Source: a virus (lineage: Duplodnaviria; Caudoviricetes). Taken from it: a DNA stretch of 39,908 nt. The translations under genes and the position numbers were made by a program. Below are positions 11,297 through 33,276 of the stretch, in pieces. The notes beneath the pieces are model-generated. The model saw only the letters and a list, made by a program, of their open reading frames with translations. It was not told the origin of the DNA and did not search any database. Where the stretch lies: IMG/VR virus record IMGVR_UViG_3300042898_000321, positions 1-39,908 of that record. The stretch is one strand, 5' to 3'. Positions within the stretch are counted from its first letter, which is position 1; the number at the start of each line of letters is the position of its first letter.

Positions 11297-11806
11297 TTAC
11301 CAGCCGGGGCAGTTCCAGCGCTGCATCGAAGCACGCGACCGACTGCCCTTTTCACTCTTTTCTGCCACAGGCCCCATTCTCGCGCAAAAAGCATCACGGC
11401 GAGGGCCTCCTTGGGGCTGTGGAGCCTTCAAATTGGAGCCGGTCTCACGGTTGTACTTGGCGCGACCTTTGGCTGTCAAACCGGCCCCCTTGTCGGCTGG
11501 CAGTTTCTCGCCGCGACCAATCGCAAGGCTTGGCCCACCGTCCTTCATTTTGGCTGTTCTGGCGGCTTGCTTGAAGGCTTTAGCCGTTGGCGCACCTTCG
11601 CTGCCAGCTCTGCGCATTTTCTCGCCAGAGCCTTCAGCGATTCGCTCACGCTTTGCATGAATGTTGGCATACAGACCACCTTCTTTTAGCTTTTTTTCGG
11701 CTTTGACAAACTCTTTGCCGACCTTCTGAGGCACACCACCAAAGCCGCCCTTAGTGTGGGCGGCGGCTTGCATCAAACGCTTTTGAGATGGTGATTTGCT
11801 TGGCAT
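11297..11806 (-). CDS. Basic modular virion-region protein (three short modules joined by xKxGG)
   Basis: Modules MPSKS..., LYANIHAKRERI... and GLTAKGRAKYNRETGSNLKAP...FCARM...WNC, separated by LKEGG and MKDGG. Confidence 0.7.
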   Translation of the reverse strand: MPSKSPSQKRLMQAAAHTKGGFGGVPQKVGKEFVKAEKKLKEGGLYANIHAKRERIAEGSGEKMRRAGSEGAPTAKAFKQAARTAKMKDGGPSLAIGRGEKLPADKGAGLTAKGRAKYNRETGSNLKAPQPQGGPRRDAFCARMGPVAEKSEKGSRSRASMQRWNCPGW

Positions 11807-12633: not shown

Positions 12634-12637
12634 AGGT

Positions 12638-13636
12638 TCAGCACTTCACTGATCCGCCACGCTTTTTAGCAGGCTCGACCGTTACAGACTTTTCAGTCTC
12701 GGTCACCGAGCCAGCCTTGGGCTTGTCGTCCATGCCCACCAAACGCTTTGCACCACGGAACAATTTGCCCGGGATGTCGCGGATGGTTTTTGCCATGTCC
12801 ATGTCTTCCTTCGACGGGCCGATGCTCTCGTTGTAAGCCTTTTCCAAGGCTTTCTGAGAGGCACCGCCACCAGCCAACTTGCGACCATACTTCTCATTGG
12901 TCATGGCTTTCGCCTGACGCATGGCAGTGGCGTTCTCAGCCTTGAAGTTGGCTTGCAACTTCTTCTCGGCTGGGGTTACGCTACCGCCCTTTTTGAAGGT
13001 GCCAGATTGGCGGTCGTTGGAGACTGGTTGTGACGCAGGCTTCTTTGGATATGCCACGGCATGGCCGCTGTTGTTAACAGCTCCCCCCGTGGCGTAGTGC
13101 TTTTTTGTGGCACCGCCTTTTTTGTAGCCGCCAGCGTTGCCCAGCTTCACTTCGCCAGTAGGCGCGGAGTTGTGGTCAACCTTGGCTGTGTGCATCATCG
13201 TCTTGCCCTTTTCGGACTTGATGATGCCGCCAGCCTTGTAGCCGCCTTGGCCGTTCACCACGCCACCAGTGGCATAGTTCCCGGGCTTTGGAGACTTGGC
13301 TACACCGCCAGTTTTCAGGCCTGCGTGGCCCTTGCTGGCAGGCTTGGCAGCGTGAGCTTCCAAGGCGTCCATTGCACCACCCTTAGCCATCATGGGACGA
13401 GCCATTGCTGACTTGCCCATCATGGCTTTGCGGCGGTCCATCATCGAAGGCTTGCCGGGACGAGCTGCAGGAGCCATACCACCACGAGCGCCGGGGGCCG
13501 GAGCTTGTGACAGTGCGCCCATGACGCCGCCGTTCATCATCTTCTTGGGAGAAGAGACGGAACCGCCTTTTTTCAGCTTGAGTTCGACTGAAGGCTCAGT
13601 GGTCTCCATCTTCACCATTGGTTTGAATTGACCCAT
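12638..13636 (-). CDS. Lys/Gly/Met-rich low-complexity protein with ~10 [LMYF]-[AK]-x-GG repeats; putative internal capsid protein
   Basis: LKKGG, MMNGG, MAKGG, LKTGG, YATGG x2, YKAGG, YKKGG, FKKGG, LAGGG, KKRGG; AAGGAG SD; downstream of capsid genes. Confidence 0.75.
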   Translation of the reverse strand: MGQFKPMVKMETTEPSVELKLKKGGSVSSPKKMMNGGVMGALSQAPAPGARGGMAPAARPGKPSMMDRRKAMMGKSAMARPMMAKGGAMDALEAHAAKPASKGHAGLKTGGVAKSPKPGNYATGGVVNGQGGYKAGGIIKSEKGKTMMHTAKVDHNSAPTGEVKLGNAGGYKKGGATKKHYATGGAVNNSGHAVAYPKKPASQPVSNDRQSGTFKKGGSVTPAEKKLQANFKAENATAMRQAKAMTNEKYGRKLAGGGASQKALEKAYNESIGPSKEDMDMAKTIRDIPGKLFRGAKRLVGMDDKPKAGSVTETEKSVTVEPAKKRGGSVKC

Positions 13637-13647
13637 GATGTGCTCCT

Positions 13648-14097
13648 TCAGACTTTCTGAGCATACACAACCGTCAGGCGATAAACGCCTTGGGTCGTGC
13701 TGATCGTGCCGTTTGGATCAGCCGTGATGACAACAGAGGTGTTCGCGCCAACATCAGCCATCGCGGCTGTTTGAGCAGCAGTGAAGGCCAAAGCGATACG
13801 ACCACCAGCGATGGCGTCAGTGGCAGACAGGTACTGAGTTCCAGCGGCAGCAGTGCCGATGGTCACAGGGACTGTTGTCGCAGTTCCAGCGCCAGCCACA
13901 GCCACCACAGTGCCGTCAACAATGAGGTTGATGATCTGCGAGGATGCGGGAATGGTGATGGTTGCGCTTGTAGCGGTGCCAGCGGCGATGGTTGTCACAG
14001 TGGTGGTCTGTGTCATGACGACGAAGCCGCCATCCACAGTGTCAGTCAATGTGCCAGAGCCTGCACGCAGGGTAGAACCAAAATAGGTTTGTGCCAT
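13648..14097 (-). CDS. Putative capsid decoration protein
   Basis: Thr/Ala/Val-rich beta protein directly after the major capsid gene; AAGGAG SD. Confidence 0.6.
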   Translation of the reverse strand: MAQTYFGSTLRAGSGTLTDTVDGGFVVMTQTTTVTTIAAGTATSATITIPASSQIINLIVDGTVVAVAGAGTATTVPVTIGTAAAGTQYLSATDAIAGGRIALAFTAAQTAAMADVGANTSVVITADPNGTISTTQGVYRLTVVYAQKV

Positions 14098-14142: not shown

Positions 14143-15060
14143 TTAGACGCCGGGAGTGCCGTACATTGCGCGTGGGTCAGTGAAGCCCACGTCGTAACGC
14201 TCGGTAGCCTTGTAGCGCATGGAGTCGGTTTCGAAATCGCCTTCCATGGTCTTTTCCAGCTTGCGACGCATCATCAGCTTCATGCCTTCTGGAGCATCGG
14301 TCTGCACCCAGAATGCCGACGGGTTGGTCAAACGCGAGATAACAGCGGCACCTTCGTCCAGCAAGCCGATGGACTTGACGGGGTTGATGTCGTTGTTTGC
14401 GTTGCCAGCACGCAGAACGCTCTTCAGCAGAACTTCAGCTTGGAACACGTTGCCGGGGGCAACCACCAATTGGCGGGGCACCAAACGGATACGCTTGCCG
14501 TTGTTGTCCACAGCCTGACGGATCTGGATCAACATCTGCTCCAGAGAAGTCTGGGACAGGTTGGCGGCGGTCGCCAGCAAGTTGCTGAAAGTACCGTTCA
14601 CGATGGGGTGGGAAGCGCTGTTCAAAGCAACACCGTCACCACCAGCGTACTGACCGCCAGTGAAGGCGTTGTTCAGGACGTTGGCAGACAGAGTCTCTTT
14701 GGTCTCGATCAGGGACTGAGCGAGGTGACGAGCGTACACCTGACCGATACGGATGTGGTCGCCGTCTTCAACCAAAACCTTGGTCAAAGCGAAGGCCAAG
14801 CCGTACACGTCATAGACGTAACGCTTCAGGAACAACACACCACCTTGTTGATACGTCACAGGCGTGCCATCGGCCATCTGCGGAGCAGCGCCGAAGCCGT
14901 ACAGGACGGGCTCTTCGTGGTAGTTGCGTGGGATGCCTTCTTGTTCGCGGAAAACGCGAGACCATTCATCGGCACGTTGATCGTAGACACCGTCGAAGCA
15001 CTCGTTCAGAATGGGTTCGACAATGCTACGAAAGTCGGTACTGCGCATTGGAGCGGCCAT
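14143..15060 (-). CDS. Major capsid protein (HK97 fold, Mu gpT-like family)
   Basis: 305 aa; GFG.AP...G..V.Y, IT/LT...EDG, DG.AL.S.SHP, P..LVV.P, F.TD..RYKA.ERY..G.TDPR...G motifs; position after scaffold; strong codon bias. Confidence 0.85.
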   Translation of the reverse strand: MAAPMRSTDFRSIVEPILNECFDGVYDQRADEWSRVFREQEGIPRNYHEEPVLYGFGAAPQMADGTPVTYQQGGVLFLKRYVYDVYGLAFALTKVLVEDGDHIRIGQVYARHLAQSLIETKETLSANVLNNAFTGGQYAGGDGVALNSASHPIVNGTFSNLLATAANLSQTSLEQMLIQIRQAVDNNGKRIRLVPRQLVVAPGNVFQAEVLLKSVLRAGNANNDINPVKSIGLLDEGAAVISRLTNPSAFWVQTDAPEGMKLMMRRKLEKTMEGDFETDSMRYKATERYDVGFTDPRAMYGTPGV

Positions 15061-15667: not shown

Positions 15668-16210
15668 TTAGCCCTCGAAAACGGGGGCACGGTTGGGTTG
15701 CTGTTGATCGAATCTGTCCATACCCGCTTCCATCTGCACCAACTTGCGACCAGAGCTGTCTTTTGCACCTGCGCTTTCCGCTTGAGAGAGGATACGCTCC
15801 ACCTCGTCGCGGGGGGCTTCATAGTGCATCTGCGCCATAACGTCTTGGTAGACATCCATGGGCAGTTTGAATAACAGCATCTCGTTGCACGAAATGTGCC
15901 CAACATGCTCACCAGCCTTGACTCGAAAACTGTCGAACCCGGGTATCTCATCTGCCGTCACAGGTACATAGCCGAGTCGCATTCTCTTGTCGATGGTGTC
16001 GTAAGCGTTGGTTGTAGAAAGCCAGCACAAGTGCCATCCCGGGATTTGGGGTGTCTTGGGCAGAGCCGATTGCGTCCACTCGTCGCTCCACATCTTTCGA
16101 CGTTCCTGCGCACTCATGAACTTTTCCTCAGGCGGTCGACGGCTTGCGTCCTCGCTTGCGCGATCATTGCGGCCACCGGCCTGAAGAGATTTTTTGAGAC
16201 GAGAATCCAT
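15668..16210 (-). CDS. Conserved head-module hypothetical protein
   Basis: W...ALP..P.IPGWH.CW.......R.RLGY.PV and MLL.KLP; between scaffold and capsid genes. Confidence 0.7.
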   Translation of the reverse strand: MDSRLKKSLQAGGRNDRASEDASRRPPEEKFMSAQERRKMWSDEWTQSALPKTPQIPGWHLCWLSTTNAYDTIDKRMRLGYVPVTADEIPGFDSFRVKAGEHVGHISCNEMLLFKLPMDVYQDVMAQMHYEAPRDEVERILSQAESAGAKDSSGRKLVQMEAGMDRFDQQQPNRAPVFEG

Positions 16211-16212: not shown

Positions 16213-17199
16213 TTAACTCCTGTAACCTTGTGATTGACGAGCTTCGGCTGCGTAACGCTTGATCATCTTGTTGCGCTTTTCTGAGTCATCCCAGAAACCC
16301 GCATCCTTCATCGCCCGAACTTGTTCGGGAGACAAAGTGAAGGTGTTTTTACCACCTGCCCTTGAGGCTGATTCACGTCCAGAGCCAGTCACGATACCCC
16401 TTGGTTTACTCCGTTGATTTGGATTCTCATCGGTGCTTGCATTGTATCGGTGTGATACGTACCTTTGCAAGCGATTGTCAAGCTCGGTCCAATACTCGGG
16501 CGAGTTGGGGTCCCAGCCCTCTTGGGTCAGGGTCTCGTCAACCTGCTTGGCGATCCGGCTGTCCAGATCCTTGCCGTCAGGGTTGAACCACGAGTTGCGC
16601 TCCATCCAATCGCTGGCGTTGCGCTGCAGGCGGGGATCAGGGATGCTGGACTCCTGCCGTGGCTGGGTGGCGCTCTTCTTGAGGTTGCGCAGAGACTCAG
16701 CCTGTTGGCGGGCCTCCATCCACATCTCCTGAGCCTTTGCCATGGCGTTGCCGTCACGAGACTCAGCGGCCTCCGACAGCTTCATCTTGGCGTAGTTGAT
16801 GCGCAGCTCGGAGTCCTCAATGGCCTTGTCGATGCGGGCCAAGTCAGCGGAGTGCGTCTTGCGCTCCACCACGGACAGTCGCTGGATCAGGTCTTGGTTC
16901 TGGCGCTCCAGCATTTGGAGTTTCAGTTCCTTCTCGACGTTGGTCTGACGCACCAGTTGCTTCTTGGTGCGACGGCGGTCGCGCTTGGCGGCACGCAGTG
17001 CTTCGGAGTCATCGGGGTGGTCGGCATCGCCATCCGCCTCACCGCCCTCGGCCATCTTTGGCTCGTTGCGGTCGTCGTCGTTGTCGTTGTCATCCTGATC
17101 CGCTTGGGGGTTCGGGATGCTGTCAGGAAGGTCAACGGTTGCTGAACCGTCTACCGCTTCCTTGACTTCAATTTGTTCGTCTTGTGCTTGTTCAGCCAT
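16213..17199 (-). CDS. Putative scaffolding protein
   Basis: Acidic N-terminus, long coiled coil, W..RNSWF, C-terminal LSPEQV..K..G; canonical position. Confidence 0.7.
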   Translation of the reverse strand: MAEQAQDEQIEVKEAVDGSATVDLPDSIPNPQADQDDNDNDDDRNEPKMAEGGEADGDADHPDDSEALRAAKRDRRRTKKQLVRQTNVEKELKLQMLERQNQDLIQRLSVVERKTHSADLARIDKAIEDSELRINYAKMKLSEAAESRDGNAMAKAQEMWMEARQQAESLRNLKKSATQPRQESSIPDPRLQRNASDWMERNSWFNPDGKDLDSRIAKQVDETLTQEGWDPNSPEYWTELDNRLQRYVSHRYNASTDENPNQRSKPRGIVTGSGRESASRAGGKNTFTLSPEQVRAMKDAGFWDDSEKRNKMIKRYAAEARQSQGYRS

Positions 17200-17207: not shown

Positions 17208-17648
17208 TCAAATAAAAGAACGCATCTCAAGGGGACTGCATGTCACCTTGGCGATGGCTTCGTGGTCATTCAAGATCATGAAGAGGGCAGGGTCTTCGAG
17301 GTGGTCCTCTCCCGGCACTTTCACTTCCCAGCGATCTCCGCCCCACTTTGGGACACGGATGTAGTCGCCAGCAACAACCCATGAGCCTTCAGGCCAGTCT
17401 TGCATGGTGTCGCGGCTCTTGAATGCAATTGGCCCAACCTCGATGACTTTCGCCACCATGTTGTTCCACTTCTCTGCATCTTTGGTCTCTTCAACCAAGA
17501 TGATTCCAGACCCAGTCATTTTCTTTTTGGTGCGGCGTAGTTGCACGAGGATTCGCCCACCGAGAGGTTTTGCGCCGGGATCTACGCTCGGAAATGCCCA
17601 AGCAATGTCAGCGTCGGTAAACGCTTCCGGTTCATTCATCATTGTCAT
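17208..17648 (-). CDS. groES: Co-chaperonin GroES-like protein
   Basis: KPLGGRILV, T.SGIIL mobile loop, AKVIEVGP, GDY..VPKWGG, ILNDHE.IA. Confidence 0.85.
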   Translation of the reverse strand: MTMMNEPEAFTDADIAWAFPSVDPGAKPLGGRILVQLRRTKKKMTGSGIILVEETKDAEKWNNMVAKVIEVGPIAFKSRDTMQDWPEGSWVVAGDYIRVPKWGGDRWEVKVPGEDHLEDPALFMILNDHEAIAKVTCSPLEMRSFI

Positions 17649-17820
17649 TGTCTTCCTTCAGAAGATTGTTCAAGATTTGCAGAGACTCCCCGAGTCCTGC
17701 GTAATGACCAGTCATTCGCTGATAGGTCTCCCATGTCGCAGCATTTCCAGCCGCTAGGGACAGGCTTATTTCAGCCTTTCGAGACTCTATCGCGCCGATG
17801 AGGTCGGAGATGGTTTTCAT
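17632..17820 (-). CDS. Small helical head-module protein
   Basis: L..G.A..WE.YQR..G...GL; coupled to neighbours between portal and GroES. Confidence 0.7.
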   Translation of the reverse strand: MKTISDLIGAIESRKAEISLSLAAGNAATWETYQRMTGHYAGLGESLQILNNLLKEDNDNDE

Positions 17821-17970: not shown

Positions 17971-20493
17971 TCAGACTCCTAGGTTGCGTTGTGCCTCTTG
18001 CTGGAGGCGGATTGCAGTTTCAAACTGCTCTGTTTGCAATATCTGATCCTTCTGGGTCAGACGTGCAGTCTCGATGCGCTCTTTCGTGAGGTTGTCCACG
18101 GAGTTGAGCGCGATGTCCATTTGCTCTTTGCGGTCGAATTCGGCGGCTTCCTGTTGGAGCTGCTGGCCCTTGAGTTGCAACTCGCCAGCGTCCTTCTTGG
18201 CGCGGCGCTCTGTCTCGGCCATGGAGGTCTCGCGCAGGACCATGGCTTCGGGTGGAAGCTGGGGCTTGGGTGCGAGTTGCTGCATGGACTGCAGGAGCTG
18301 CTGGATCAGCGGGACGATCTGGGAGAAGGCCTTCTCGCTGTCCATCTTGACGTGCTGAGACGCAATGGCGAACACCTTGTCGATCTCGGCTGTCAGTTGC
18401 TTGTTCTCGTACTCCTCTTCGGTCAGAGGCTTGTCGCCACGGGCCTTGGAGACGTAGCCGTTCATGCGGTTCAAGTACCACATGACCATGTGCTGCTTGA
18501 TGTGCTCCAAGCTGCGTGGCAGGTAGAACGAGGCCATGATCGGGTTCGAGCCGAAGATCGGGTTCAGGGCAAAGTCCAGATGGCTCTGGATGTGCGCCAG
18601 ATGATCCTGCTGGATGTACGCGAAGGCGTTCTGGCCCAAGGCCATAGCGACGTTCTCGTCCGCTGGTGTGCGCTCCTCGGGGGCTGGGGTGTCCTTGAGC
18701 AACTCGTTGATGGCCGGGATCTTGAGCTGCTTGAGGAGGCGCTGCTCCACCGCTTGGCGGTTGTACAGGTCAGGTGCCTTGTCGGCCCGGGCCAGCACAG
18801 CCTGCATTTGGGCCATGCGCTGGGTCTCGGAGAAGATGTGGGGGTCAGAGACTGGCACCACGTCAGTGTTGCGGCGGAAGTCTTCGGACTCGATCTCCAG
18901 CTCCTCGACGATCTCGCCCTTGCGCTGGTCGTCCAAGTACCAGCGGTTCAAGCGGCCAAGAATCTTCAGCACCCGGGCCTGCGAGTCGTGCAGGCGGGAG
19001 TGGATGGCCGAGAACACGGCAGCGCCCTGCTCGATCAGAGCTTGAGTCGTGCCCACAGGGGTGTTGGCGTTGACGTCGGCAATCTTCTCCTCGGCGGTGG
19101 TGACCACGCCCCGGGCGGCTTTGTCGAGGTAGCCCACCAGCTCAAACAGCACCTGCGAGGGTGGGTTGAACGGCATGGGCATGGCGATCTTGCGGATGTC
19201 GTCCACGCCGGGTGCGCCCTCGATCTCCACGATCTGGGTGACGTCGACCTGCTGGCTCTGGCCGCTGATCTTGGCCCCCTTGAGCTTGAGCATGGTGGCG
19301 GCGTTGTTGATGTGTGCGCTGTCCAACAGAGCGCGGATGCCGCCAGTCAGGGCCGCAGACAAGCCGCCGATCAGGTGGGGCAGGCCAATGGCATAGGCAC
19401 CGCGCCATGGGATGAACTTGAACTCCACAACCCAGTCCAGCTTGGTCATGGTGTCGTCGCCGTCTTCCCAGTTGCGGTACAGGCCGATAACCTCGTGCTC
19501 CAAGTCGTCGATCATCATGATGTACGGGGCCATCTCGCCCTTGGACTCGCCGTCCTCGTCCAGCTCCAAGTGGCAGTAGACGTGGTAGACCGTGCGCTCA
19601 CCGTCCTCGTTGTCCTGATACTTGCGGCCTTCGATCTTGTCGTTGGCCTTCTCCGCTGCAGTCTGGTCCGGCTGCATGGTCGCCCGGATGACGTCGATGT
19701 CACGGTACAGGCCCGTGCGGATGCGGCGTTTGAACTCCCACTCCGTGATGACATGGACCTCGGTCGCACGCTGGGCGGTGTAGAAGTTGGTGGCCGAGAA
19801 CGGAACAATCACCCGGTCGATGGGCAGGAACTCAGCGCAGGGGCGCTTCTTCTGCTCGTCGTACCAGAGCTTCATGTACTGGGAGCCGCCCAGCGGGAGC
19901 TGGGTCAGGAGCTGCTCCTGCTCGTCGCGGAACTCCTCGATCTGCTCGGTGAGCTGCCAGTTCATGTAGTCGCGCTTGCGCTCGGCTCTGGCTGTCTTGT
20001 CCTCGTCGACCTTGCCCAAGATCTTGGTCTTGACCGGGCCGTCAGGCGGGAACATCTCTTTGATGGCGCGGGAGGCAAAGTCAACGCAGGCCTCGGCCAT
20101 GACGGGGTGAACCACCTTGGACGCGCCGGAGAAGGTTGCGCCACCGGGGGCGTCCTTGCCCAGACCGGTGCGCTTGAGGCCCTCCTCGTACTGCTTGTCG
20201 CGCTCCTCGCGGGCCTGCTTGTCCTTCTCGATCAGGTCGATGTACCGCAGGGCGATGCTGCCCAGCTCACCCGGGTCGATGACTTCGGCCAAGTTCTGGT
20301 AGAACTCGCCGTCTTCCATCGGGCCTTCGGTGTCCATGGACACCACCACAGAGCCGTCAGGCAGCTCCTCAAGCTCGGTGGATTCGTCAGGCAGCTCGAA
20401 CTCCATCTCGTCGTCTTGGGTCTCTTCTGGCTGGTCTGGAACGCCGGGGACGAAGCGTCCGTACTCGGGTTCGATTGGGAACTCTGTAGCCAT
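17971..20493 (-). CDS. Portal protein
   Basis: 840 aa; GAS.VVHP.MAEA..F..RA.KE.FP..GPVKT, LPLGGS...K and PVGTT.AL.E motifs; C-terminal Gln-rich barrel; position upstream of scaffold and capsid. Confidence 0.85.
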   Translation of the reverse strand: MATEFPIEPEYGRFVPGVPDQPEETQDDEMEFELPDESTELEELPDGSVVVSMDTEGPMEDGEFYQNLAEVIDPGELGSIALRYIDLIEKDKQAREERDKQYEEGLKRTGLGKDAPGGATFSGASKVVHPVMAEACVDFASRAIKEMFPPDGPVKTKILGKVDEDKTARAERKRDYMNWQLTEQIEEFRDEQEQLLTQLPLGGSQYMKLWYDEQKKRPCAEFLPIDRVIVPFSATNFYTAQRATEVHVITEWEFKRRIRTGLYRDIDVIRATMQPDQTAAEKANDKIEGRKYQDNEDGERTVYHVYCHLELDEDGESKGEMAPYIMMIDDLEHEVIGLYRNWEDGDDTMTKLDWVVEFKFIPWRGAYAIGLPHLIGGLSAALTGGIRALLDSAHINNAATMLKLKGAKISGQSQQVDVTQIVEIEGAPGVDDIRKIAMPMPFNPPSQVLFELVGYLDKAARGVVTTAEEKIADVNANTPVGTTQALIEQGAAVFSAIHSRLHDSQARVLKILGRLNRWYLDDQRKGEIVEELEIESEDFRRNTDVVPVSDPHIFSETQRMAQMQAVLARADKAPDLYNRQAVEQRLLKQLKIPAINELLKDTPAPEERTPADENVAMALGQNAFAYIQQDHLAHIQSHLDFALNPIFGSNPIMASFYLPRSLEHIKQHMVMWYLNRMNGYVSKARGDKPLTEEEYENKQLTAEIDKVFAIASQHVKMDSEKAFSQIVPLIQQLLQSMQQLAPKPQLPPEAMVLRETSMAETERRAKKDAGELQLKGQQLQQEAAEFDRKEQMDIALNSVDNLTKERIETARLTQKDQILQTEQFETAIRLQQEAQRNLGV

Positions 20494-20496: not shown

Positions 20497-22413
20497 TCAA
20501 TTCCTCTGCATCAGTTCCAGAAGCATAGCATCTGGGTTTTCGGTGAAATGTACCGGATTTTGAACCTGTTGTTCATTATTCTCGTCAAACATTTGAGAGC
20601 CGATTGTCGCCGCTCCTGAGCCTGCGGCCAAGCCCTCTGGCCCCATGCCAGTCTTGCTGTACAGGGGCAGGCCTTTGGCCTTGACCTCCTCGCGCAATTG
20701 CGGGGTGATGTCGAAGGAGTGGAACCTGCCGTAGTTCTCAAACTCTTCTCTGTTTGAGAAATCAGCAAAGTGTTTGTTGCGTAGAGCTTGGCGGTCTGGT
20801 GAACTCATCTGCTGCCATTGATCAGGTGTAACCCCGGTGTCTAGGTACAGATCTTCTATTGACCAAGCGCGAGTAATCGGTTTTTTCAGTTCAATCTCCC
20901 CGACCGAGGAGCCGTAGGGTTTGCCGAAGTTGTTCAAGTAGTCGGGCAGGATCTTGTCGTAGAAGCCCTTCATGCCCTCGCCGCCGACTTGGAGGTCAAC
21001 GCCATTAAGTTGCTTGTAACTTCCAGCGTAAGGCTGCGCAATCAACTTTTCTGCCGCCTCTTTGCCAATGTAATCGGCAAGATTTTCTGGCGTCACATCA
21101 TCGGCCATCTTGTCAAAATTGCTGCTGTTTTTTTGTTTTGCATACAAGCGGCCTTTTTCTGGGTTCCACTCAATTGCGTCAATCTGCTTGCTGAGGTCAT
21201 ACCGCTTGGCTTGCTCTGCACCCGGGGTGATGGCGATGCTGTCGTAGCCGTTCTCTGCTGCGTAATCCAGCACGCGCTTCATTGCCAGCTCGTGCCAGTT
21301 CTTCTTGAATGGGGCGTCGGGGACTGCTCCGGCTGTTGTCTTTTCACTCAAAACATATTGAGCGGCTGCATCCATTGAGTCAAAACGCGACTTAGGAATT
21401 TGAAAAACTTGATCTGGTGTTTTTAGATACCAGAATAAATCAGCGTTGTCTAATCCAAATTCAGATTGCGCTTGCTCTTTGCTGTATGGCGACAAATCCT
21501 CAGGCTTATATTTGTTGCTGTACCCGCCCTTACGCCCAGCCTGATGCCAGTCAGACTGGATCTCGTCAACCAGCAGAACCTTCTTGGGCTTGCCTTGTGC
21601 CGGTGCCAACTTCAACTGACTGCGCATATTTTCAGGGTACTGAAACATGGCAGCATGCGCCTCCTGAATTGTCGGGAATACCTCAGACTTGTTGCCCGAG
21701 CGAGTGTTAACCACGGCATACCCCTTTGATGGCACTTGGAAGTCCTGCACACGGATGTGGGCCAGCAGGTTGGGGTCTTCGCGGTAGTGGCTGCTGGTGT
21801 AGTTCGTTGCGCCAGCAGGCTCCTTGGCCTTGAGTTCTTGGTAACGAGCCATCCTCTCTGGGGTGGCCTTCCCCTCAGTGCGGCGCAAGTCAGCCTCGTA
21901 CAGCATCAGCTCGTCCTGCTCCATCTTGGTCAGGCCGCGCTTTGGCAGCTTCAGCAGGATCTCGCGGTAGTTCTCGCCGCCCGGGGTCTTGTACTGCTCG
22001 TACTGCGTTGTGGGCAGCTCCCTGAACATCTTTTCGAGTCTGGCCTTCTCCTGCTTGTTGAGATCAAACCAGTCAACGCCGTACTCCTCTTGGGCCTTGG
22101 CCTCCAAGAAGTCTTCGTAGTCAGGCGATTCGCTGCTCAAGACCTTCTCTTGCACCTTGGGCGGGGCTTTATCCTCAAAGATCTTCTGCACCTCGGCCTT
22201 GGTCATCTTGGGCTTGTCTTTCAAGGCCTTCTCGATGCCACGCTCACGCAGCTCGGTGGGTTTTGCACCCTTCTTGACCAGCTCACCCAAGAACTCGTTG
22301 CCCAAGCCTTTGCCACGGGGCAGCTCATCCAAGACCATGTCAGCCTTGGAGAAGAACGGAGCGGCCTTCTTGGCCCCTTTTGCGGCCACGCCGACTAGAT
22401 CGAGTACACCCAT
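20497..22413 (-). CDS. Polyvalent-type putative injected protein, possibly divergent GNAT fold
   Basis: Conserved-looking blocks PGGENYRE.LL, SH....N.LAH.R, LL.DEIQSDWHQ, PDAPF..W, MKR....A...GYD.IA and GM..FYDK, separated by AT-richer inserts. Confidence 0.55.
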   Translation of the reverse strand: MGVLDLVGVAAKGAKKAAPFFSKADMVLDELPRGKGLGNEFLGELVKKGAKPTELRERGIEKALKDKPKMTKAEVQKIFEDKAPPKVQEKVLSSESPDYEDFLEAKAQEEYGVDWFDLNKQEKARLEKMFRELPTTQYEQYKTPGGENYREILLKLPKRGLTKMEQDELMLYEADLRRTEGKATPERMARYQELKAKEPAGATNYTSSHYREDPNLLAHIRVQDFQVPSKGYAVVNTRSGNKSEVFPTIQEAHAAMFQYPENMRSQLKLAPAQGKPKKVLLVDEIQSDWHQAGRKGGYSNKYKPEDLSPYSKEQAQSEFGLDNADLFWYLKTPDQVFQIPKSRFDSMDAAAQYVLSEKTTAGAVPDAPFKKNWHELAMKRVLDYAAENGYDSIAITPGAEQAKRYDLSKQIDAIEWNPEKGRLYAKQKNSSNFDKMADDVTPENLADYIGKEAAEKLIAQPYAGSYKQLNGVDLQVGGEGMKGFYDKILPDYLNNFGKPYGSSVGEIELKKPITRAWSIEDLYLDTGVTPDQWQQMSSPDRQALRNKHFADFSNREEFENYGRFHSFDITPQLREEVKAKGLPLYSKTGMGPEGLAAGSGAATIGSQMFDENNEQQVQNPVHFTENPDAMLLELMQRN

Positions 22414-25400
22414 TACAGTTTCCTTTCTTCGAGGATCAGATCGTCGGCGGTGATCTCACCACCTGCAGCTTTGCGCACAGAGCCACCCTCGTTGAAGCCG
22501 CGCACCTTGCGCAACTGGGTGTAGTACTTGTACATATCGTCGAGGTAGGCCTCATCAACCACCTGATGCGGGAACACCTTCTGAATGGTGCCGGTGAAGT
22601 CCTGTGGGCGGTACTTCTCGCGGACAAATGCCGTCACATCAGGGAAGCTGATCGAGAACGGGGACAGCTCGGGCGCACGACCCAAAGCAGTGCCCGGGAT
22701 GTCGTGGCTGTAGGTCTGGTGCGCAGAGTCAGGAATCAACTCAGCACCGGGCTTCATGCGACCAGCAGACAGGCCGGTGAGGTTGATCTCCATGTCCCTC
22801 AACTCAGGCTCAGTCATGGCGTACTCGATTGACTTGGCGTTTGGCAGATCAAGGGGCTTGGTGACCTTCTCTGTCTTCATGCGGTTGTTGAACCACTTGC
22901 GCAGCTTCGGGTCTTCCTTCATTGCCTGCAGGGCTTCCTCTGGGCTTGCAATACCGGGCCAGTTCTCGAACGTCACCCGCTCTTTGGTTGTTGGGTCAAC
23001 GTAGCCTTTGGACACGACTTTGTCGAAGGCGTTCATCTTGTCTTTGTTGAGCTTGGAATAGTCAATCGCCCTGATGCTTGCGTCAGCCATGTGCTGCGCG
23101 AAGTTGTTGGACATTTGACCCATCGCCAAGTGGTACGCAGTCACCATGTCGGTGTCATACAACTGGGCAAGCTCGGTGACCTTCTTCTGAAACAACTCTG
23201 CAGGGCCAATGTTTGATGCCCAGAACGCACGGGTCTCTTCCGGGTCGGACAGACGGCCACGGCCAAACAAAGCACCGCCCTCTGATGTCGTGCCAATCGG
23301 GATGCCATCAACGCTCTCCAAAAGCATGTCAGAGATGGTCTGGTCACCCGGCAAAGCGATGTTGACCTCACCAATCTTGGCCTCGTAGGGCTTCATCTCT
23401 GGCAGGTCTTTGATTGGCGTAACCTTGTAGTCCAGCTTCTTGAGTCGGTCAAACTCTCTTTTTGAGCGTCCAGCAAGGTTCGTAGTGTCCTTGAGTAAAG
23501 GGGAACGAACGAACTCACCAGCCTGTTGCTTGCCAACGCGCTCTGCAGCCTCGAAGATGTCCTTGGTGGTTGGTCGGACACGAGGAACGCTCAAAGGCAC
23601 AGCGGCCTCCTTTGCGCCCTTTGCCGCTCCCTTAGCGCCCATCTTTGCCAGAGCACCACCACCAGACATCTGTACGGCACCACCGTCGGCCTTGGTGATG
23701 TCCGGATCTTCGATGTCATATGTGCCACGGTTGCCGATGGCCGACTTGATCTTGTTCGGCTCGAACATGATGATCTCCTGCTCCCCGCCACGGTTGCCGT
23801 AGGGGTCTGCATGGATGATGCTGTCGTAGCCTTCCTTCTTCAGCTCCTCAATCGTCTTGGGGGCGATCAGGTCAGGGAACTCACTGCTACCGTCTGCGAA
23901 AACATCTCGCGCCCATTCGATTGACAGCTTGTCGTCAAGCATCAGCGGAGATCTGGCCTGCACATGAACAGGCATGACGTTGGTGCCTTCCCTAAACTCC
24001 TGTGTGCGACTGCTGATGTTGTGAGCGGCAGGCTGCTTCGTCGCATCAGGTGTCAGCCAGATTGCTGGTCCGCTCATCGTGGGGTCATCACCACCCGGCT
24101 TGAACTGCTTGAAGTCCTTAGGGGTTGCGTGATACAAACGCTCCCTGATCCTGCTGTTGCCAAGGAACTTCTGCAGGTTCTCTTCCCGCTCTGCCGCAGG
24201 CAGCACATCCTGCGTGCCCTTCACGGGCTTTGCAGCAGCCTTGGCGGTCTTTGACAGCTTGCCAACCAGTCCGCCACCAGCCATCTCAACATCGCCAACG
24301 ATGGCTTTCTGCGGGATCTCGAACTCGCTCCAGTCATCAGGGCCGCGCTCCATGCGAACACGGTATCCCGGCTCGTATGGCGACCTCATTGCCTTGCCCG
24401 TCTCAGGGTCAATGATTGGCTTCCCCATGCCCGGGCCAAACTCAGGATGGTCCTCGCGCATCACCTGATTGCCAACACGAGTGCGGTTCAGGATTGTGTA
24501 GGGCGGCTTGTTCTTTCCTGCGCTGTCTTTGGTGAAGACTCGCTGGCCCTTGTCGTATTGATAGTCGAAGCCTCCCATCATCTTTTGGGCTTCCATAGCG
24601 CCAGCACGGACCCTGTCACCCAAGTTGGTGTGGACGTCTTGCAGGGTGGTCAGATCTTTGCCAGCGGTTACGGGGGCTTTCATCCCGGCTGACTCTGCAG
24701 CTTTGCCAACTGTGCTTGCCAGCTTCTTGACCAGACCACCACCAGCCAGCTCAAGCTGCATGACGTCTGGGTTGTCGGAGAAGTGGACAGGGCCACCATC
24801 GGCGTACTCGCGGGGAGGCTTGACGATCAGGTCTTCCTGCGGCACGTCATAGCTTGTGGGTGGCGGGTACTGCAGGCGCTGCTGGGGCGTCATCATCTGG
24901 CGGTCTTGCACGGCCCGGGCCTCGGCCTCGCCAGCCAAGCGCTTGTAGTAAGTCATGGCGGCAGTCTCTTGGAGAGCACGCTCAACCTTGTCGCTGGTTA
25001 TTGGGTTTGCCTTGCGCTCGTTGACGTACTGCACATACGCAGCCTTGGCCTCATCCTCGGGGTACTTGTTGACCCTCTGAAAATCCTCAAACGAGGCTGG
25101 CTTGTAGGCCTCTTCACGCAGTTGCTTGAGGATCTCAAAAGCCTCTGGGTTCTGGAAGGCAAACGTAGGGCTACCGCCCGGACCCATGCCTTCAAGCGTC
25201 TGTACGGCATGCTGCATCTCGTGCAAGGCAGTTGACGTGGGGTTCTTGCTCATCAGCCCACGGTTGTACATATCCATCTCCATGTGCCCCGGGTAGCCTC
25301 CGCTCTTGGGCAAAACGCTCAAGGAGCCCATGGCCCCCTGAGATGCCCCCTCGTTGCCACCCATGGTGATGTTCAGGTTGCGCAGCTCAGGGTAGGCCTC

Positions 25401-26405
25401 ATACAGCTCGGGGTGGTCGAAGGCGTACTGGGCGTCAATGCCCTGCGTGCGGGCGTTCTTGCTGCGGCCTGAGATCTCCTCCTTCAAGGCGTCGATGTCG
25501 CTCCTGACGCCCTTCTTGGCTTCGGTCAAGGCCTTGGGGAACAGATCCTTCTGGGGCGTCGGCTTGATGCTCTCCTTCAACTCGCCGACCCGTCCTTTGA
25601 GGGCTGCGACTCGGTCTTGCTGCTCATCAGGCAGGACCAGCTTGGCTGCGCGGTCGTCGATCTCTTGGCGCAGGATGCCGTCAGCCCCACGGAAGGTGCC
25701 AGTGGCCTGCCAGACCTCCTCAGGGGTGTAGCCAGACTTCTCCATGCCAACAGCCATGTCAGCCTTGGCTTTGTTCCATGTCTTGGCCTTGGGGCCGACA
25801 AAAACACCGGCTTGAGAGTTCAGGGTGCGAGGGGCGGCTAGGTTCAGTGCGCCCTGCCTTGCCCCCTGCTGGGCTGCTCTGCCTGCCTGCCGTGTGGCTG
25901 GGCCAATCACGTTCTGCAGCATCATGGCCTGAGGAATGATGGGAGGGATCTTGTAGTCGCTCTCAAGGCTCTGCAGGAAGTTGCCCACGTCCTCAGCGTA
26001 CTCATAGGCCTTTGGTTGGTTGGGCTTGTAGATGTTCTCAGCGATGTACTCCTCAGCCGCCTTGCCGCCCTTGGTGATGGCCGTGGGCAGGGACTTGGCC
26101 GCTTGGTACATCCCGGAGCCGATCAGTCGGCCAGTCTGTATGCCACCGGCAATCTTCTCCAGCGGGGACATGGCTTCATCAGATTGACGCTTAAGGTCGG
26201 CCTGACGCGCAGATATGCGCTGGCTCAGGGCGCGATTTTCCATGGTTGGGACGGACAGGTCATAGTCTTCGAGCTTGGGCAGCTCCATCGCTCGGTCGTC
26301 GGAGAAGATCTGAGCAAGCTGCTCCTTGGCGGTGGGCTTGCGTTGGCCGCGCTTTCCTGCTTGAGGATAGATGCCGAAGGCGGCTTGCTCGGAGGGTTTG
26401 GGCAT
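22413..26405 (-). CDS. Large polyvalent protein: LPD23-like/HExxH metallopeptidase, SH3-like, ADP-ribosyltransferase-like and unknown C-terminal domains
   Basis: TGTFRGADG..R.EIDD and LHEMQHAVQ.LEG; YHAT...F, WLT, V.PV.V...P, GYD.II and EQE...F.P..IKS..GN.GTYD. Confidence 0.75.
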   Translation of the reverse strand: MPKPSEQAAFGIYPQAGKRGQRKPTAKEQLAQIFSDDRAMELPKLEDYDLSVPTMENRALSQRISARQADLKRQSDEAMSPLEKIAGGIQTGRLIGSGMYQAAKSLPTAITKGGKAAEEYIAENIYKPNQPKAYEYAEDVGNFLQSLESDYKIPPIIPQAMMLQNVIGPATRQAGRAAQQGARQGALNLAAPRTLNSQAGVFVGPKAKTWNKAKADMAVGMEKSGYTPEEVWQATGTFRGADGILRQEIDDRAAKLVLPDEQQDRVAALKGRVGELKESIKPTPQKDLFPKALTEAKKGVRSDIDALKEEISGRSKNARTQGIDAQYAFDHPELYEAYPELRNLNITMGGNEGASQGAMGSLSVLPKSGGYPGHMEMDMYNRGLMSKNPTSTALHEMQHAVQTLEGMGPGGSPTFAFQNPEAFEILKQLREEAYKPASFEDFQRVNKYPEDEAKAAYVQYVNERKANPITSDKVERALQETAAMTYYKRLAGEAEARAVQDRQMMTPQQRLQYPPPTSYDVPQEDLIVKPPREYADGGPVHFSDNPDVMQLELAGGGLVKKLASTVGKAAESAGMKAPVTAGKDLTTLQDVHTNLGDRVRAGAMEAQKMMGGFDYQYDKGQRVFTKDSAGKNKPPYTILNRTRVGNQVMREDHPEFGPGMGKPIIDPETGKAMRSPYEPGYRVRMERGPDDWSEFEIPQKAIVGDVEMAGGGLVGKLSKTAKAAAKPVKGTQDVLPAAEREENLQKFLGNSRIRERLYHATPKDFKQFKPGGDDPTMSGPAIWLTPDATKQPAAHNISSRTQEFREGTNVMPVHVQARSPLMLDDKLSIEWARDVFADGSSEFPDLIAPKTIEELKKEGYDSIIHADPYGNRGGEQEIIMFEPNKIKSAIGNRGTYDIEDPDITKADGGAVQMSGGGALAKMGAKGAAKGAKEAAVPLSVPRVRPTTKDIFEAAERVGKQQAGEFVRSPLLKDTTNLAGRSKREFDRLKKLDYKVTPIKDLPEMKPYEAKIGEVNIALPGDQTISDMLLESVDGIPIGTTSEGGALFGRGRLSDPEETRAFWASNIGPAELFQKKVTELAQLYDTDMVTAYHLAMGQMSNNFAQHMADASIRAIDYSKLNKDKMNAFDKVVSKGYVDPTTKERVTFENWPGIASPEEALQAMKEDPKLRKWFNNRMKTEKVTKPLDLPNAKSIEYAMTEPELRDMEINLTGLSAGRMKPGAELIPDSAHQTYSHDIPGTALGRAPELSPFSISFPDVTAFVREKYRPQDFTGTIQKVFPHQVVDEAYLDDMYKYYTQLRKVRGFNEGGSVRKAAGGEITADDLILEERKL

Positions 26406-26535: not shown

Positions 26536-27975
26536 TTAGGCGGCGTAGGGGTTCTCGCGCTTGCGGTGCTCCCAGCCTGCGTCGATGACATCATCGGCAT
26601 CGTAGTCTTCCGGTGGTGGCGGGTCAATGTTCAGCCAGCCAGCGTCGCGCAGGTAGCGCAGGGCTTGGCTCATGGCGTCGCAGAAGTCGTCGTGGGTCGT
26701 CTCCGGGAAGGAACAGATCTGGCTGACCATGCCCTCGGCCCAGTCCCTGACGTATCCCTTACGGTTGCTGCTCTCGGGTATCCACACCCGGCCAGCCCGG
26801 ATGATGTTCGCCACGATGGACAGCCGCTGGACCTTGTCGGCCCGCCCGGGGTTGTAGGCACGCACGAAGACGTGGGCACGCTGCAGGTCTTGGATCAGGG
26901 AGATGCCCGAAGCCTTCTCCTCCACCAGCACCAGATCGACCCGGCGTGCGTCCTTGCCCTCGCCGTAGACCGACTCGTACTCCTCCAGCACCTTGTCCTT
27001 CATGTCAGGGTACTGTAAGCGGTCCTGCCAAGCGTCCATGACCAGCACGCACATACCGCCGTCCTGAGGCTTGAACACCCCGAAGCTGATACAGGCAGTG
27101 GGGTCGTTCTGGGCCTTCTCGGTGAAGGCGCAGTCGTAGCTCTGCAGGATGAACTCCAGCTTGGGCAGCGGCTTGGCTGCAGGCCAGAGCTTGAACCAGT
27201 CCCGCTTGACGATGCCACCCTCCTCGGGGTCAAGGATCTCGGCATAGATCTCCTGCTGCCCGAGCTTGGTGCCCTCGTACTGCAGGATCTGTTTGCGGAA
27301 GTTGTCCGACAAGTTGTCGATGTTGGCATAGGTCGAGGCGGTCGTCAGGTGGACATCATCCCCTTCCCGGCCCACCAGCTCGACGATCAGGTCCTTGGGG
27401 CGCGGGGTGGTGGTGCAGATGAGGCGGGTCTTCCAGTCGGCGTCCACCTTTAGGCGCATGCCGAACATGATCTGGTCCCAAGCCTCCTGCAGGTAGTCCC
27501 ATGCGGCCAGCTCGTCACACCAACCCCCATGGAACTGTGGACCCCGGAAGCGCTCAGGCTCAGATGCGGGTATACCCTTAATCAGTGAGCCGTTGACCAG
27601 CTTCAGCTCGTGCATCTGCTTGTTGTAGTCAGCGATCAGGATCTTGGGGATGACGGCCAGCAGCCCGGAGTCACCCTCAAAGCAGGTGGCCCGGACGTCG
27701 GCGCTCGTTGGGGCGGAGACCAGCCAGCGTGTGCCGGGATGCTCCCATGCCCACCACCAGATCTGTTCGGCAGCGGTGCGGGTCTTCCCGGCTCCACGGC
27801 CAGCCAGCAGCAGCCAGATCGACCACCACGAGCCATGGGGCAGCACTTGATGGTTGTGCGCCTCTGTGAGCCACTTAGCCCGCTTGGCGAAGGCCATCTT
27901 GTGGGTGTCAGGGGCGACGCTCAGGGCCTGCAGGACTTCAGGGTCTTGCAGGGTGTCCAGCAGATCACTGCTCAT
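26536..27975 (-). CDS. terL: Terminase large subunit
   Basis: Walker A AGRGAGKT, Walker B GWCDE, TTTP coupling motif, nuclease residues SYD.A, E.KASG and HDD..DA. Confidence 0.95.
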   Translation of the reverse strand: MSSDLLDTLQDPEVLQALSVAPDTHKMAFAKRAKWLTEAHNHQVLPHGSWWSIWLLLAGRGAGKTRTAAEQIWWWAWEHPGTRWLVSAPTSADVRATCFEGDSGLLAVIPKILIADYNKQMHELKLVNGSLIKGIPASEPERFRGPQFHGGWCDELAAWDYLQEAWDQIMFGMRLKVDADWKTRLICTTTPRPKDLIVELVGREGDDVHLTTASTYANIDNLSDNFRKQILQYEGTKLGQQEIYAEILDPEEGGIVKRDWFKLWPAAKPLPKLEFILQSYDCAFTEKAQNDPTACISFGVFKPQDGGMCVLVMDAWQDRLQYPDMKDKVLEEYESVYGEGKDARRVDLVLVEEKASGISLIQDLQRAHVFVRAYNPGRADKVQRLSIVANIIRAGRVWIPESSNRKGYVRDWAEGMVSQICSFPETTHDDFCDAMSQALRYLRDAGWLNIDPPPPEDYDADDVIDAGWEHRKRENPYAA

Positions 27976-30892: not shown

Positions 30893-31119
30893 GCCTTCCC
30901 CCTTGCTCGGATGGCTTCTTGGAAATGCCACGGCGCTGCATGTAAAAGAGCCAGATGAAGCATTGCCTCACGCTCATCAGCACGGACAAGGGCAACGAGC
31001 CGTTCAATCCGTTCGAGTCGCTGGCTACCCATTGTGCTGATTGTTTCTTTCCCAAGAATTCCAGTGATGTGCTGAAACTCAATGCCAGCCTCACGGGCCA
31101 TGTCTATCGTGTCTCTCAT
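30889..31119 (-). CDS. Hypothetical protein
   Basis: I.MAREAG...ALVRADEREA...AIRARG pattern; ATGA overlaps. Confidence 0.7.
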   Translation of the reverse strand: MRDTIDMAREAGIEFQHITGILGKETISTMGSQRLERIERLVALVRADEREAMLHLALLHAAPWHFQEAIRARGKA

Positions 31120-32459
31120 GTGTTCTTCTCCTTGAGTTTGGCTTCGATGGCTTGGGCAATATCAATCCGGTGTTGTGCCCATGAGACTGTGTAATCAAGG
31201 CTTCGCCATGCTTGGTCAATCTCTTCATCCGTCAGCCCTACCCATTGCCGCTGTGCTGATGGGGTGGTGTAGAGGGGTTTCCATTCGTGCTCTGATGTAA
31301 ATTCAAAATCGTAGGCATCGCCCCTGTCCAACCAAAATGACTGAAGGCGACCTCGTTGATACATCGCCCACGCCACAGGCTCCTGCACAGGTGCTGCGGT
31401 TTTGAGTCGGTCTATTGCAAGATACGGGTTGTCACCCCACTTGCACCCAATGGCATCATGCAAATCTAAGCAGACCTGAGCCATCGCATAGGCTTGCGCT
31501 ACGTTAATCGGCTCTTGCTGTGCTGGCTGTGCTGCGGGTTGGGTGGTAACAATCCAGTTCGCCAGTTCAATGCACTCTCGGGCTGTGACGTTTGGGTTTC
31601 TGGCCGTCCGCATCGTCTGCCCCGCATACCGCTTAACGCGCTGCACGATCTCAGGCTCCTGCACAGTCTGCACTGGTGCTGCGGGTTGGGAATGTTCCAT
31701 TGCGCGATGGATGCGCCGCAACTGCTTGTCAAGCGCGGGGTATTCATTGAGGAAATCTGAGCCACCTTCCCAAGCATCCAGCAGTGGGCCAATCAATGGC
31801 ATGACAGCTTCGCTCTGTGCGGTACGCAAAAGTTCGCGCTCTTGTTGCACAGGTGCTGGTTGTGCTGGTGGGGTGGTATAAAAATGCTCTGCAAGCTCAC
31901 GGGCCTTATGCTTGGTAACGCCTTCGCGGACAAGGTTTGCCGTGACCATCTCCACCCATGATGCGGGTGGGGTGGTTGTGGTTTTCGGTGTAGCCATCAG
32001 CTTGTTGCCGACCCATTCGACAAGGCCGACTTCAAACGCCACAGGCTCCTGCACAGGTGCTGCATCACGCATAGCCACATCAAACTTCAGTGCGTCTATG
32101 AAGTTTTCCGGCACAGGCTCATAGTCCAGCCCCAACTCTCTGGCGTTCTCTGCCTTCTTGTCGAGGGCTTGCTCCACTGCGCGACCAGCATCGTAGCCAT
32201 ACTTCCAGCCCATCTCCACCAGATCGAGTTGGTCTTCGCTGTAATGCTCGGTGCGGGGAACGCCATGCTCCAGCACGTTGCCACTCTTCCACTGCTCAAA
32301 GGTTTTGTAGATCATTGTGTTTTCCTGCACAGGTGCTGCGGCTTGCAACGCCATTCCCCCAATAGTCCCGATCAAACGCTTGATCTCGTCCACCAATGCT
32401 TTTGTTGTATTAGGGTCAACCGGGACAACTGCTCCCGGCATCAGCCATTCTTCTTTCAT
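31116..32459 (-). CDS. Mosaic accessory protein built of modules joined by AAPVQEPVA / YTTPP linkers
   Basis: Repeated APVQ(E)P linkers; ends QWVGLTDEEI...AIEAKLKEKNT. Confidence 0.75.
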   Translation of the reverse strand: MKEEWLMPGAVVPVDPNTTKALVDEIKRLIGTIGGMALQAAAPVQENTMIYKTFEQWKSGNVLEHGVPRTEHYSEDQLDLVEMGWKYGYDAGRAVEQALDKKAENARELGLDYEPVPENFIDALKFDVAMRDAAPVQEPVAFEVGLVEWVGNKLMATPKTTTTPPASWVEMVTANLVREGVTKHKARELAEHFYTTPPAQPAPVQQERELLRTAQSEAVMPLIGPLLDAWEGGSDFLNEYPALDKQLRRIHRAMEHSQPAAPVQTVQEPEIVQRVKRYAGQTMRTARNPNVTARECIELANWIVTTQPAAQPAQQEPINVAQAYAMAQVCLDLHDAIGCKWGDNPYLAIDRLKTAAPVQEPVAWAMYQRGRLQSFWLDRGDAYDFEFTSEHEWKPLYTTPSAQRQWVGLTDEEIDQAWRSLDYTVSWAQHRIDIAQAIEAKLKEKNT

Positions 32460-33169
32460 GTGTTCTTCTCCTTGATTGCATAGTCGTGAAATATTGCTCC
32501 CTTGCTTGCGTCACCCACCTTGCAGGACTTTACCCAGACGTTTTTGCCGGTTTTGAGCCTCCTCAGGTGGCCTCTACGGTCGTGCAGGCGGGGTGATGCG
32601 TGTGTGCCCCCCTTGCCCTCTGATCGAGGCTTGGCTGGCTCAATCCAGACCGTTGTCCAGTCGTAGGTTGGCAATTTCCCTTGCTGAATCTTGCGGCGAT
32701 TGGTGAATGTGTCGCGCACCGACGGGGTGTATGCCTCCATGCGGCGATCCATTGCGCTATACCAAGCTCCAAGCTGCGCCAGCATTAATTCAGCAAGTTC
32801 TTTGTCTACCGGCTCATCTTCGTTTACAGAACCATAACGAATTTCGTCACCTTCAATGAAGTAAAACATTGCAGGAATAGGGCGCAAGCGTGTTCCAGAG
32901 GGGCCTTTCCACATGGACACAGAAATACCCTCATCTGGGTCTTCTCCCGCCACCAGCATCAAAACCTCGTAGCTTGGGTGGTGGCTGGTTTTTCCCTGCC
33001 ACGCAACAAAACATTTGCCAAAAGGCGGTCTATGCGTCATCACCGGATCAAGATTGGCTTTTTGCTTATCCCCAACTGCACCAGTCATGTCAAACCATTT
33101 CATGTCAACAATATCGACTCCAGCGTCAGCCATCAGCTTCATGGACGAACGAACAAGTTGTGTGGTCAT
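32456..33169 (-). CDS. Hypothetical protein with SPR.H.RRGH.R motif
   Basis: AGGAG SD before MTTQLVRSS; basic C-terminal motif THASPRLHDRRGHLRR...VWV. Confidence 0.75.
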   Translation of the reverse strand: MTTQLVRSSMKLMADAGVDIVDMKWFDMTGAVGDKQKANLDPVMTHRPPFGKCFVAWQGKTSHHPSYEVLMLVAGEDPDEGISVSMWKGPSGTRLRPIPAMFYFIEGDEIRYGSVNEDEPVDKELAELMLAQLGAWYSAMDRRMEAYTPSVRDTFTNRRKIQQGKLPTYDWTTVWIEPAKPRSEGKGGTHASPRLHDRRGHLRRLKTGKNVWVKSCKVGDASKGAIFHDYAIKEKNT

Positions 33170-33276
33170 AAACAACTCCTCAAGGTCAACAGGCCCAGCA
33201 TCAGCACAATGAAGGCCACCAAGGCCCACACCAACTGCCTGTCCGCAGGGGTGGGCTTGTCTTCGTCTTCGTTCAT
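33166..33276 (-). CDS. 36-aa membrane peptide (not in ORF track)
   Basis: MNEDEDKPTPADRQLVWALVAFIVLMLGLLTLRSCL; GGAG SD; ATGA overlaps at both ends. Confidence 0.65.
   Translation of the reverse strand: MNEDEDKPTPADRQLVWALVAFIVLMLGLLTLRSCL

Follow-up and report, generated by a model that had tools for sequence, protein, structure and literature searches.

Phage polyvalent proteins are mosaic proteins for which packaging into the virion, followed by injection, has been proposed (Iyer, Burroughs, Anand, de Souza, and Aravind 2017; main text, PMC5512222). Here, we analyze a 1330–amino acid (aa) protein from a 39.9-kb phage contig (IMG/VR record IMGVR_UViG_3300042898_000321, positions 1 to 39,908; “the window” hereafter means this whole stretch), together with a short motif, X/[AK]-x-G-G, that punctuates it (a slash marks the likely cut throughout). 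The 1330-aa protein belongs to the polyvalent proteins. It is a multidomain protein in a portal-terminase phage, contains ART-PolyVal, LPD23, and HExxH modules, and is encoded near virion genes, with 84 mosaic architectures among 120 relatives. However, whereas Iyer et al. propose autoprocessing by the metallopeptidase (MPTase) domain (main text, PMC5512222), the joint motif, leaders, and tails found here are independent of the MPTase. The words “linker,” “glycine,” and “diglycine” do not occur in the main text of that paper, and no published description of the motif was found in the literature searched (most subscription papers were outside reach).

The T4 capsid-targeting sequence with gp21 prohead processing, SPN3US gp245, and the GG-directed polyproteins of adenovirus and African swine fever virus (ASFV) all involve an identifiable encoded protease, and the residues before the cut are read. 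These systems use a single sequence code for scaffold, basic internal proteins, and ejected cargo, which may also be so here. They differ in that, here, no protease was found among the window proteins scanned, and conservation falls on residues downstream of the inferred cut. With regard to the pattern of shared sites typical of T4 and SPN3US, motif copies are dense in cargo and basic proteins and absent from terS, terL, and GroES, and only 24/71 putative scaffolds have a site.

A motif at module swap points

The motif has the consensus [KMYLFR]-[AK]-x-G-G-x-[VI]. Seven sites occur in the 1330-aa protein, all at the positions reported in an earlier note made from the sequence alone, compared with 0.25 expected (P = 0.002, the floor of 500 shuffles; 7-residue pattern). 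The first 533 aa, comprising the N-terminal region, LPD23, and the HExxH module, have no sites. The earlier placement of the gene between the large terminase subunit gene (terL) and the portal gene agrees with Pfam and PHROGs.

Relatives were collected from IMG/VR as the best 80 of 599 portal matches and the best 80 of 275 terL matches. Both genes were held by 102 of 159 sequences (window included), and 136 intervening proteins of at least 200 aa were reduced to 120 at <90% identity. We find that the motif is a mark of cargo, of small basic proteins of the head module, and of ejection-type proteins, and not of terminase, portal, or capsid. The pattern [FYM][AK]xGG occurs 233 times in the terL-portal intervening proteins (16.8 in shuffles), in 96 of the 120. 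It is absent from 80 terS, 109 terL, 72 GroES, 48 capsid, and 31 adaptor proteins, and occurs once among 92 portals. There are 305 copies in 38 homologues of the 332-aa basic protein, 31 in 39 homologues of the 169-aa basic protein, and 15 in 71 putative scaffolds. Enrichment requires both glycines, as single-Gly variants are not enriched, and V or I two residues after the GG is also part of the consensus in relatives.

We show, by comparison of homologous proteins, that the motif sits at module swap points. A homology breakpoint lies within 20 aa of 217 of the 276 internal sites, compared with 67 by chance. The same distance separates a breakpoint from 237/288 motif sites, 186/716 other GG pairs, and 740/4473 random positions, which bears out the earlier expectation that domains shuffle at the motif. 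This excess persists after lineage thinning (48/90 versus 11 with 26 lineages; 18/38 versus 3 with 11 lineages).

The motif might instead be a mere by-product, whether of a hot-spot for DNA recombination, of translation restarting internally, or of glycine linkers of a generic kind. Met is among its commonest first residues, and other GG pairs are slightly enriched near breakpoints (26% versus 17%). However, motif GG pairs are found at breakpoints three times as often as other GG pairs. A DNA-level hot-spot was rejected because the GG codons vary synonymously (11 hexamers at 289 sites). Internal starts were rejected because a Shine-Dalgarno–like sequence is found at 5/118 motif Mets, compared with 58/120 true starts, and Y, F, K, and L occupy the Met position too. 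We thus consider a by-product highly improbable; as judged from these comparisons, the motif is selected at the protein level.

Cutting the 120 proteins at the motif in silico gives 299 segments, 49 module families, and 84 architectures, with a Pfam match in 9 of the 49 module representatives. Leader, tail, and joint are three separable elements, and the architecture of a unit is leader, domain, motif, and short tail. Leaders and tails are also found at the true ends of stand-alone genes. The 638-aa module, for example, is its own gene in the window, and relatives L080 and L094 carry it as a fusion downstream of LAGGG; the NPD element at the end of the stand-alone gene has no preceding GG. A connector of GG plus NPDxMxxEL occurs in 242 proteins of a 50%-identity library. 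Among 353 distinct sites, the next element is a basic leader at 73, an NPD tail at 35, an EERxL tail at 18, a second motif at 25, and something else at 202. The proposal that every piece exposes the same leader is therefore not supported. In the 1330-aa protein, leaders follow only three of the seven sites, and these three are basic and amphipathic, as had been claimed, with hydrophobic moments at the 98th, 95th, and 81st percentiles of the protein (89th for the N terminus of the 638-aa protein).

An AlphaFold model of aa 530 to 1330 (35 rows) has two confident domains, at approximately aa 609 to 707 and 935 to 1304. Confident folds stop at M708 and F1304, and low-confidence stretches begin at A709 and N1305. 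The adenosine diphosphate (ADP)–ribosyltransferase (ART) region had almost no alignment depth in this run, and so its low predicted local distance difference test (pLDDT) score is uninformative. A look-alike, FKPGG (aa 768), lies inside the ART domain. Thus, a loose motif pattern over-calls.

Register of the likely cut

Natural N termini were matched to internal leaders on the residues after the GG alone. Matches were obtained for 22 of the 120 natural N termini, compared with 2/60 and 1/60 in two nulls. The internal leaders are homologous to the N termini of stand-alone genes; the earlier note had seen a resemblance to the N terminus of the next gene. In 10 of these matches, the start Met falls opposite the residue that precedes the Ala, and in 8 it lies one or two residues upstream of that position. 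It coincides with the Ala in 1 and with the first Gly in 3, and never with the last Gly. The GG is replaced in all 10 natural starts of the first kind, and a protein starting M[AK]xGG is found just once in 120. In one relative (L061), the natural start of a protein can be aligned, free of gaps, with one of its own internal joints.

Similar sites are found in virion proteins of other phages. The T5 tape measure protein pb2 has a cut mapped by mass spectrometry after R1127 (accessible text of PMC10038345). The protein reads R/AEGG at this cut, which is one of three [AK]xGG in 1219 aa. R-A-x-G-G is invariant in six of six T5-family proteins, with identities as low as 34%. Reading the site as an upstream F-V-P was rejected, as that string varies among the six sequences. 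The title of a 1973 paper mentions involvement of the host in the T5 tail cut. The crAss001 cargo protein C1 gp45 (Pfam crAss_CARG1) is likewise virion cargo punctuated by X-AxGG. Its portal-bound density begins at residue 425 (accessible text of PMC10172136), which is the Ala of N/AFGG. Unlike the 1330-aa protein, it belongs to an unrelated phage order, has no effector enzymes, and is one uncut chain according to its authors (accessible text of PMC10172136).

The lambda tape measure protein gpH is cut to gpH* and gpHC; according to a 2025 paper, neither the site of this cut nor its enzyme is known (accessible text of PMC12617516). We find FATGG (aa 733 to 737) and YATGG (aa 778 to 782) in its cleaved C-terminal part (gene H). 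A candidate cut at F733/A734 would release a 120-residue, 12.5-kDa fragment, compared with a reported ~14 kDa. The segment headed by F733-ATGG aligns with ejection-region proteins of relatives: in phages RW and MW202545, AxGG opens a GEYV-containing segment that aligns with the C-terminal part of gpH and matches tape-measure PHROGs (E values of 1e-8 and 2e-5). The Pag-Yong1 and crAss001 segments have no PHROG match, the T5 row was misplaced by MAFFT in the segment alignment, and the MW202545 protein returned only one weak row against solved structures (E = 1.2). In contrast to the RW and MW202545 proteins, AxGG opens no GE-containing tape-measure C-terminal segment at the joints of the 1330-aa protein. 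Tape measures also differ in being tail proteins with one cut, whereas the head-cargo chain has as many as seven joints. No AxGG motif is named in the accessible text of the T5 and lambda papers (PMC10038345, PMC12617516). A tape-measure cut in JBD30 is only predicted by its authors and was not used.

The cut likely lies before the Ala, not after the GG, because natural start Mets align there and then lose the GG, predicted folds end there, T5 pb2 is cut at R/AEGG, and the ordered segment of crAss001 gp45 starts at the Ala.

The earlier note had placed the cut after the double glycine, as would be made by an adenain/ASFV-type (clan CE) or bacteriocin-type protease. The adenain consensus is (M/L/I)xGG/X, which LAGG-G, MAGG-G, and MSGG-G fit, and 3 of the 22 natural starts align at the first Gly. 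However, none of the 22 aligns at the last Gly, our proxy for mature N termini after GG as in adenain/ASFV-type systems. Furthermore, conservation reaches the V or I two residues past the GG, the T5 cut is four residues earlier, and no clan CE protease was found among the 28 window proteins scanned (small early genes were not scanned, and the contig is incomplete). A cut after GG is thus improbable.

If the cut does lie before the Ala, X/[AK]-x-G-G could be one unrecognized proteolytic code across tailed phages, used in siphophage tape measures (T5, lambda), crassvirus cargo, and podovirus-like cargo chains. Any module bolted onto such a chain would be released with its native N terminus by a possibly host-encoded protease. 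We offer this wider reading tentatively, as a plausible idea to which we give less than even confidence.

Probable processing in trans or a possible uncut tag

We suggest, with slightly better than even confidence, that the modules form a chain joined at a selected motif, which is likely packaged in the head and likely cut before Ala or Lys by a trans protease other than its own HExxH module, restoring the N terminus of each module. Fusion of two cargo genes would convert a downstream start, Met-Ala-Asp..., into Met-Ala-Asp-Gly-Gly. With the two glycines in place, a protease that recognizes residues downstream of the cut may be able to restore the original free N terminus of the module. Short C-terminal tails (NPDxMxxEL and DDLxxEERxL) might dock the chain on the prohead and then be trimmed off, while basic amphipathic leaders might guide each freed module out during ejection. 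The trans protease is possibly host-encoded, and could act at maturation or entry.

The HExxH module of the protein itself was the enzyme first proposed. It has HEMQH at aa 395 and a downstream EAEAR, and MPTase autoproteolysis has been proposed for polyvalent proteins (main text of PMC5512222). However, this module occurs in only 6/86 loci, and any HExxH or HExxxH string in 33/86, compared with 82/86 for the motif, which also marks genes elsewhere in the genome. The HExxH module is thus cargo rather than a dedicated protease, and self-processing is highly improbable.

Two other candidate proteases were rejected. The product of gene 15668-16210 has a pLDDT of 73, no Foldseek match at E ≤ 0.001, and a best VIA Z of 3.9, and its H60, C62, and C108 are not kept in HTVC023P, CRP-901, Pag-Yong1, and DSL-LC04. 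Its ESM Atlas matches are unnamed viral clusters only, and it starts with LQAGG, a poor fit to the motif. The cysteines of gene 9872-10213 are lost in distant relatives. Gene 15668-16210 (minus strand) is itself a core head-module gene, kept as far as HTVC023P and Pag-Yong1, with a confident small beta domain and a long helix of no known fold.

Alternatively, the motif could be an uncut loading or docking tag, or a hinge, in which hydrophobic-[AK]-x-GG-x-V attaches to the inside of the prohead or to the portal, avidity comes from the presence of many copies, and the chain leaves intact on ejection. The last site lies 10 to 30 aa from the C terminus in 54/107 proteins, which a binding tag fits equally well. 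Many copies are present in the 332-aa basic protein (11) and its homologues, and the crAss001 gp45 segment from AFGG binds the portal wing (accessible text of PMC10172136). N4 virion RNA polymerase is packaged unprocessed (main text of PMC5512222), and no protease was found in the scan of 28 window proteins. However, a tag does not account for the loss of the GG exactly where the leader is already a free N terminus (10/10), with M[AK]xGG at the start of only one of 120 proteins, nor for the NPD tag without preceding GG in the 638-aa gene, nor for the real T5 cut on the motif. We regard an uncut tag as a serious possibility, although a doubtful one.

Several further observations weigh against processing in trans. 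The absence of a protease from the proteins scanned is one, and two conserved unknown genes lose His or Cys in distant relatives. The position just ahead of the cut shows unusual variety (K 89, M 68, Y 67, L 30, F 24, and R 10 of 306), only 271/837 breakpoints lie within 20 aa of a motif, and the head genes of Caulobacter phage RW have no strong site. Of the 22 leader matches, about half trace to neighboring loci (L061 to L076) and are probably not independent. Outside this group, two further [AK]xGG in T5 pb2 (aa 139 and 180) are not mentioned as cut in the accessible text of PMC10038345. For the crAss001 authors, gp45 is a single chain that spans head and tail, and the string “cleav” does not occur in the accessible text (PMC10172136). 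Homology to tape measures is confined to the segment of the ejection proteins and does not extend to the joints of the 1330-aa protein.

The locus and its modules

Table 1. Features of the window and of the 1330-aa protein, with the strand and the basis or remark for each.
Feature	Position	Strand	Remark
Window			39.9-kb phage contig
1330-aa modular (polyvalent) cargo protein	22413..26405	(-)	between terL and portal
terL, flank	26536..27975	(-)	Pfam; motif in 0/109 homologues
Portal protein, flank	17971..20493	(-)	PHROGs; 1 motif among 92 homologues
638-aa stand-alone cargo module	20497..22413	(-)	leader at natural start; NPD tag 20500-20553 at end
Predicted piece 1, aa 2-534, 58.8 kDa	24804..26402	(-)	N-terminal region, LPD23, HExxH module; no internal motif
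LPD23 domain, aa 201-256	25638..25805	(-)	Pfam PF18838, E 1e-11, above cut-off
HEMQH zincin-type motif, aa 395	25209..25223	(-)	module is accessory cargo, 6/86 loci
Site 1, Y/ADGG, aa 534	24792..24806	(-)	sequence
19-aa connector ending in NPDxMxxEL element	24747..24803	(-)	element also C terminus of 638-aa gene
Site 2, L/AGGG, aa 553	24735..24749	(-)	basic amphipathic leader after it
Predicted piece aa 554-708	24282..24746	(-)	leader and small SH3/KOW/Tudor-like barrel
Site 3, M/AGGG, aa 708	24270..24284	(-)	confident fold stops at M708
Predicted piece aa 709-905	23691..24281	(-)	leader and ART-PolyVal ADP-ribosyltransferase domain
ART-PolyVal domain, aa 757-895	23721..24137	(-)	Pfam PF18760, E 2.6e-12, above cut-off
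Tandem sites 4 and 5 together	23655..23693	(-)	sequence
Site 4, K/ADGG, aa 905	23679..23693	(-)	sequence
Site 5, M/SGGG, aa 913	23655..23669	(-)	sequence
Predicted piece aa 914-1304	22494..23666	(-)	leader and uncharacterized 370-aa domain
Tandem sites 6 and 7 together	22458..22496	(-)	confident fold stops at F1304
Site 6, F/NEGG, aa 1304	22482..22496	(-)	sequence
Site 7, K/AAGG, aa 1312	22458..22472	(-)	sequence
C-terminal tag ending DDLILEERKL	22416..22469	(-)	EERxL type, in 27/120 proteins
332-aa basic low-complexity head-module protein	12638..13636	(-)	11 motif copies
169-aa basic protein (DUF6321)	11297..11806	(-)	2 motif copies
M/AEGG site in putative scaffold gene 16213-17199	17035..17055	(-)	scaffold inferred from position; site in 24/71 homologues

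The features are listed in Table 1. The minus strand encodes terS, terL, the 1330-aa and 638-aa genes, portal, GroES, a putative scaffold, two unknown genes, the major capsid protein, an adaptor, a tail fiber, and lysis genes (Pfam and PHROGs). Packaging of the 1330-aa protein in the phage head is likely, given the position of its gene. The nozzle and ejection genes present in complete relatives are missing from the contig. By capsid protein, the nearest cultured relatives are Caulobacter phages RW, RLK, KcrB, and GB2A (75%), followed by the remoter CRP-901/902, DSL-LC04, HTVC023P/027P, and Pag-Yong1/MinM2 (38 to 43%). The terL-portal protein of DSL-LC04 has three motif sites.

The modules named in the earlier note stood to differing degrees: the ART domain was confirmed by Pfam and the HExxH string was found, while the SH3-like barrel (aa 614 to 705) is fold-compatible with SH3/KOW/Tudor, though not proven, with matches at VIA Z 5.2 to 6.4 and no usable match in the ESM Atlas. 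The 370-aa domain is the commonest cargo module in relatives (37 segments). It matches uncharacterized viral proteins (16 at E ≤ 0.001), and one fold match carries the annotation “Structural protein.” Its model has a weak YTH likeness (Z of 6.0, root-mean-square deviation of 3.5, 124 aligned), and this YTH/PUA-like resemblance might hint at modified-base recognition.

A GroES-like gene (17208-17648) and a conserved 62-aa gene (17632-17820), both on the minus strand, lie directly after the portal gene and are common to distant relatives. The capsid protein (14143-15060, minus strand), for which no solved structure was matched, has YQQGGVL at aa 70; this string resembles the motif but carries Gln at the key residue, and the two probably have no connection. 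A second, unrelated punctuation pattern is found in a 447-aa early gene (31116-32459, minus strand), where APVQEPVA-like linkers repeat between short segments; this gene has no Pfam or PHROG match. The annotation of Caulobacter phage RW splits the large terminase into two genes, separated by a methyltransferase gene (32117-34919). Between the nozzle and ejection genes of MW202545 are a beta-ketoacyl synthase gene (12438-13382) and a small acidic gene (13535-13816) that is acyl carrier protein-like by eye; this pair possibly acylates ejection proteins.

With the motif as a rule, many proteins that lack annotation can be divided into units; 40/49 module representatives are without a Pfam match. 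The prediction of F733/A734 makes the lambda gpH cleavage site, an old open question, directly testable. If true, processing at these joints would account for the ability of an abundant phage group to exchange its injected cargo while packaging stays intact.

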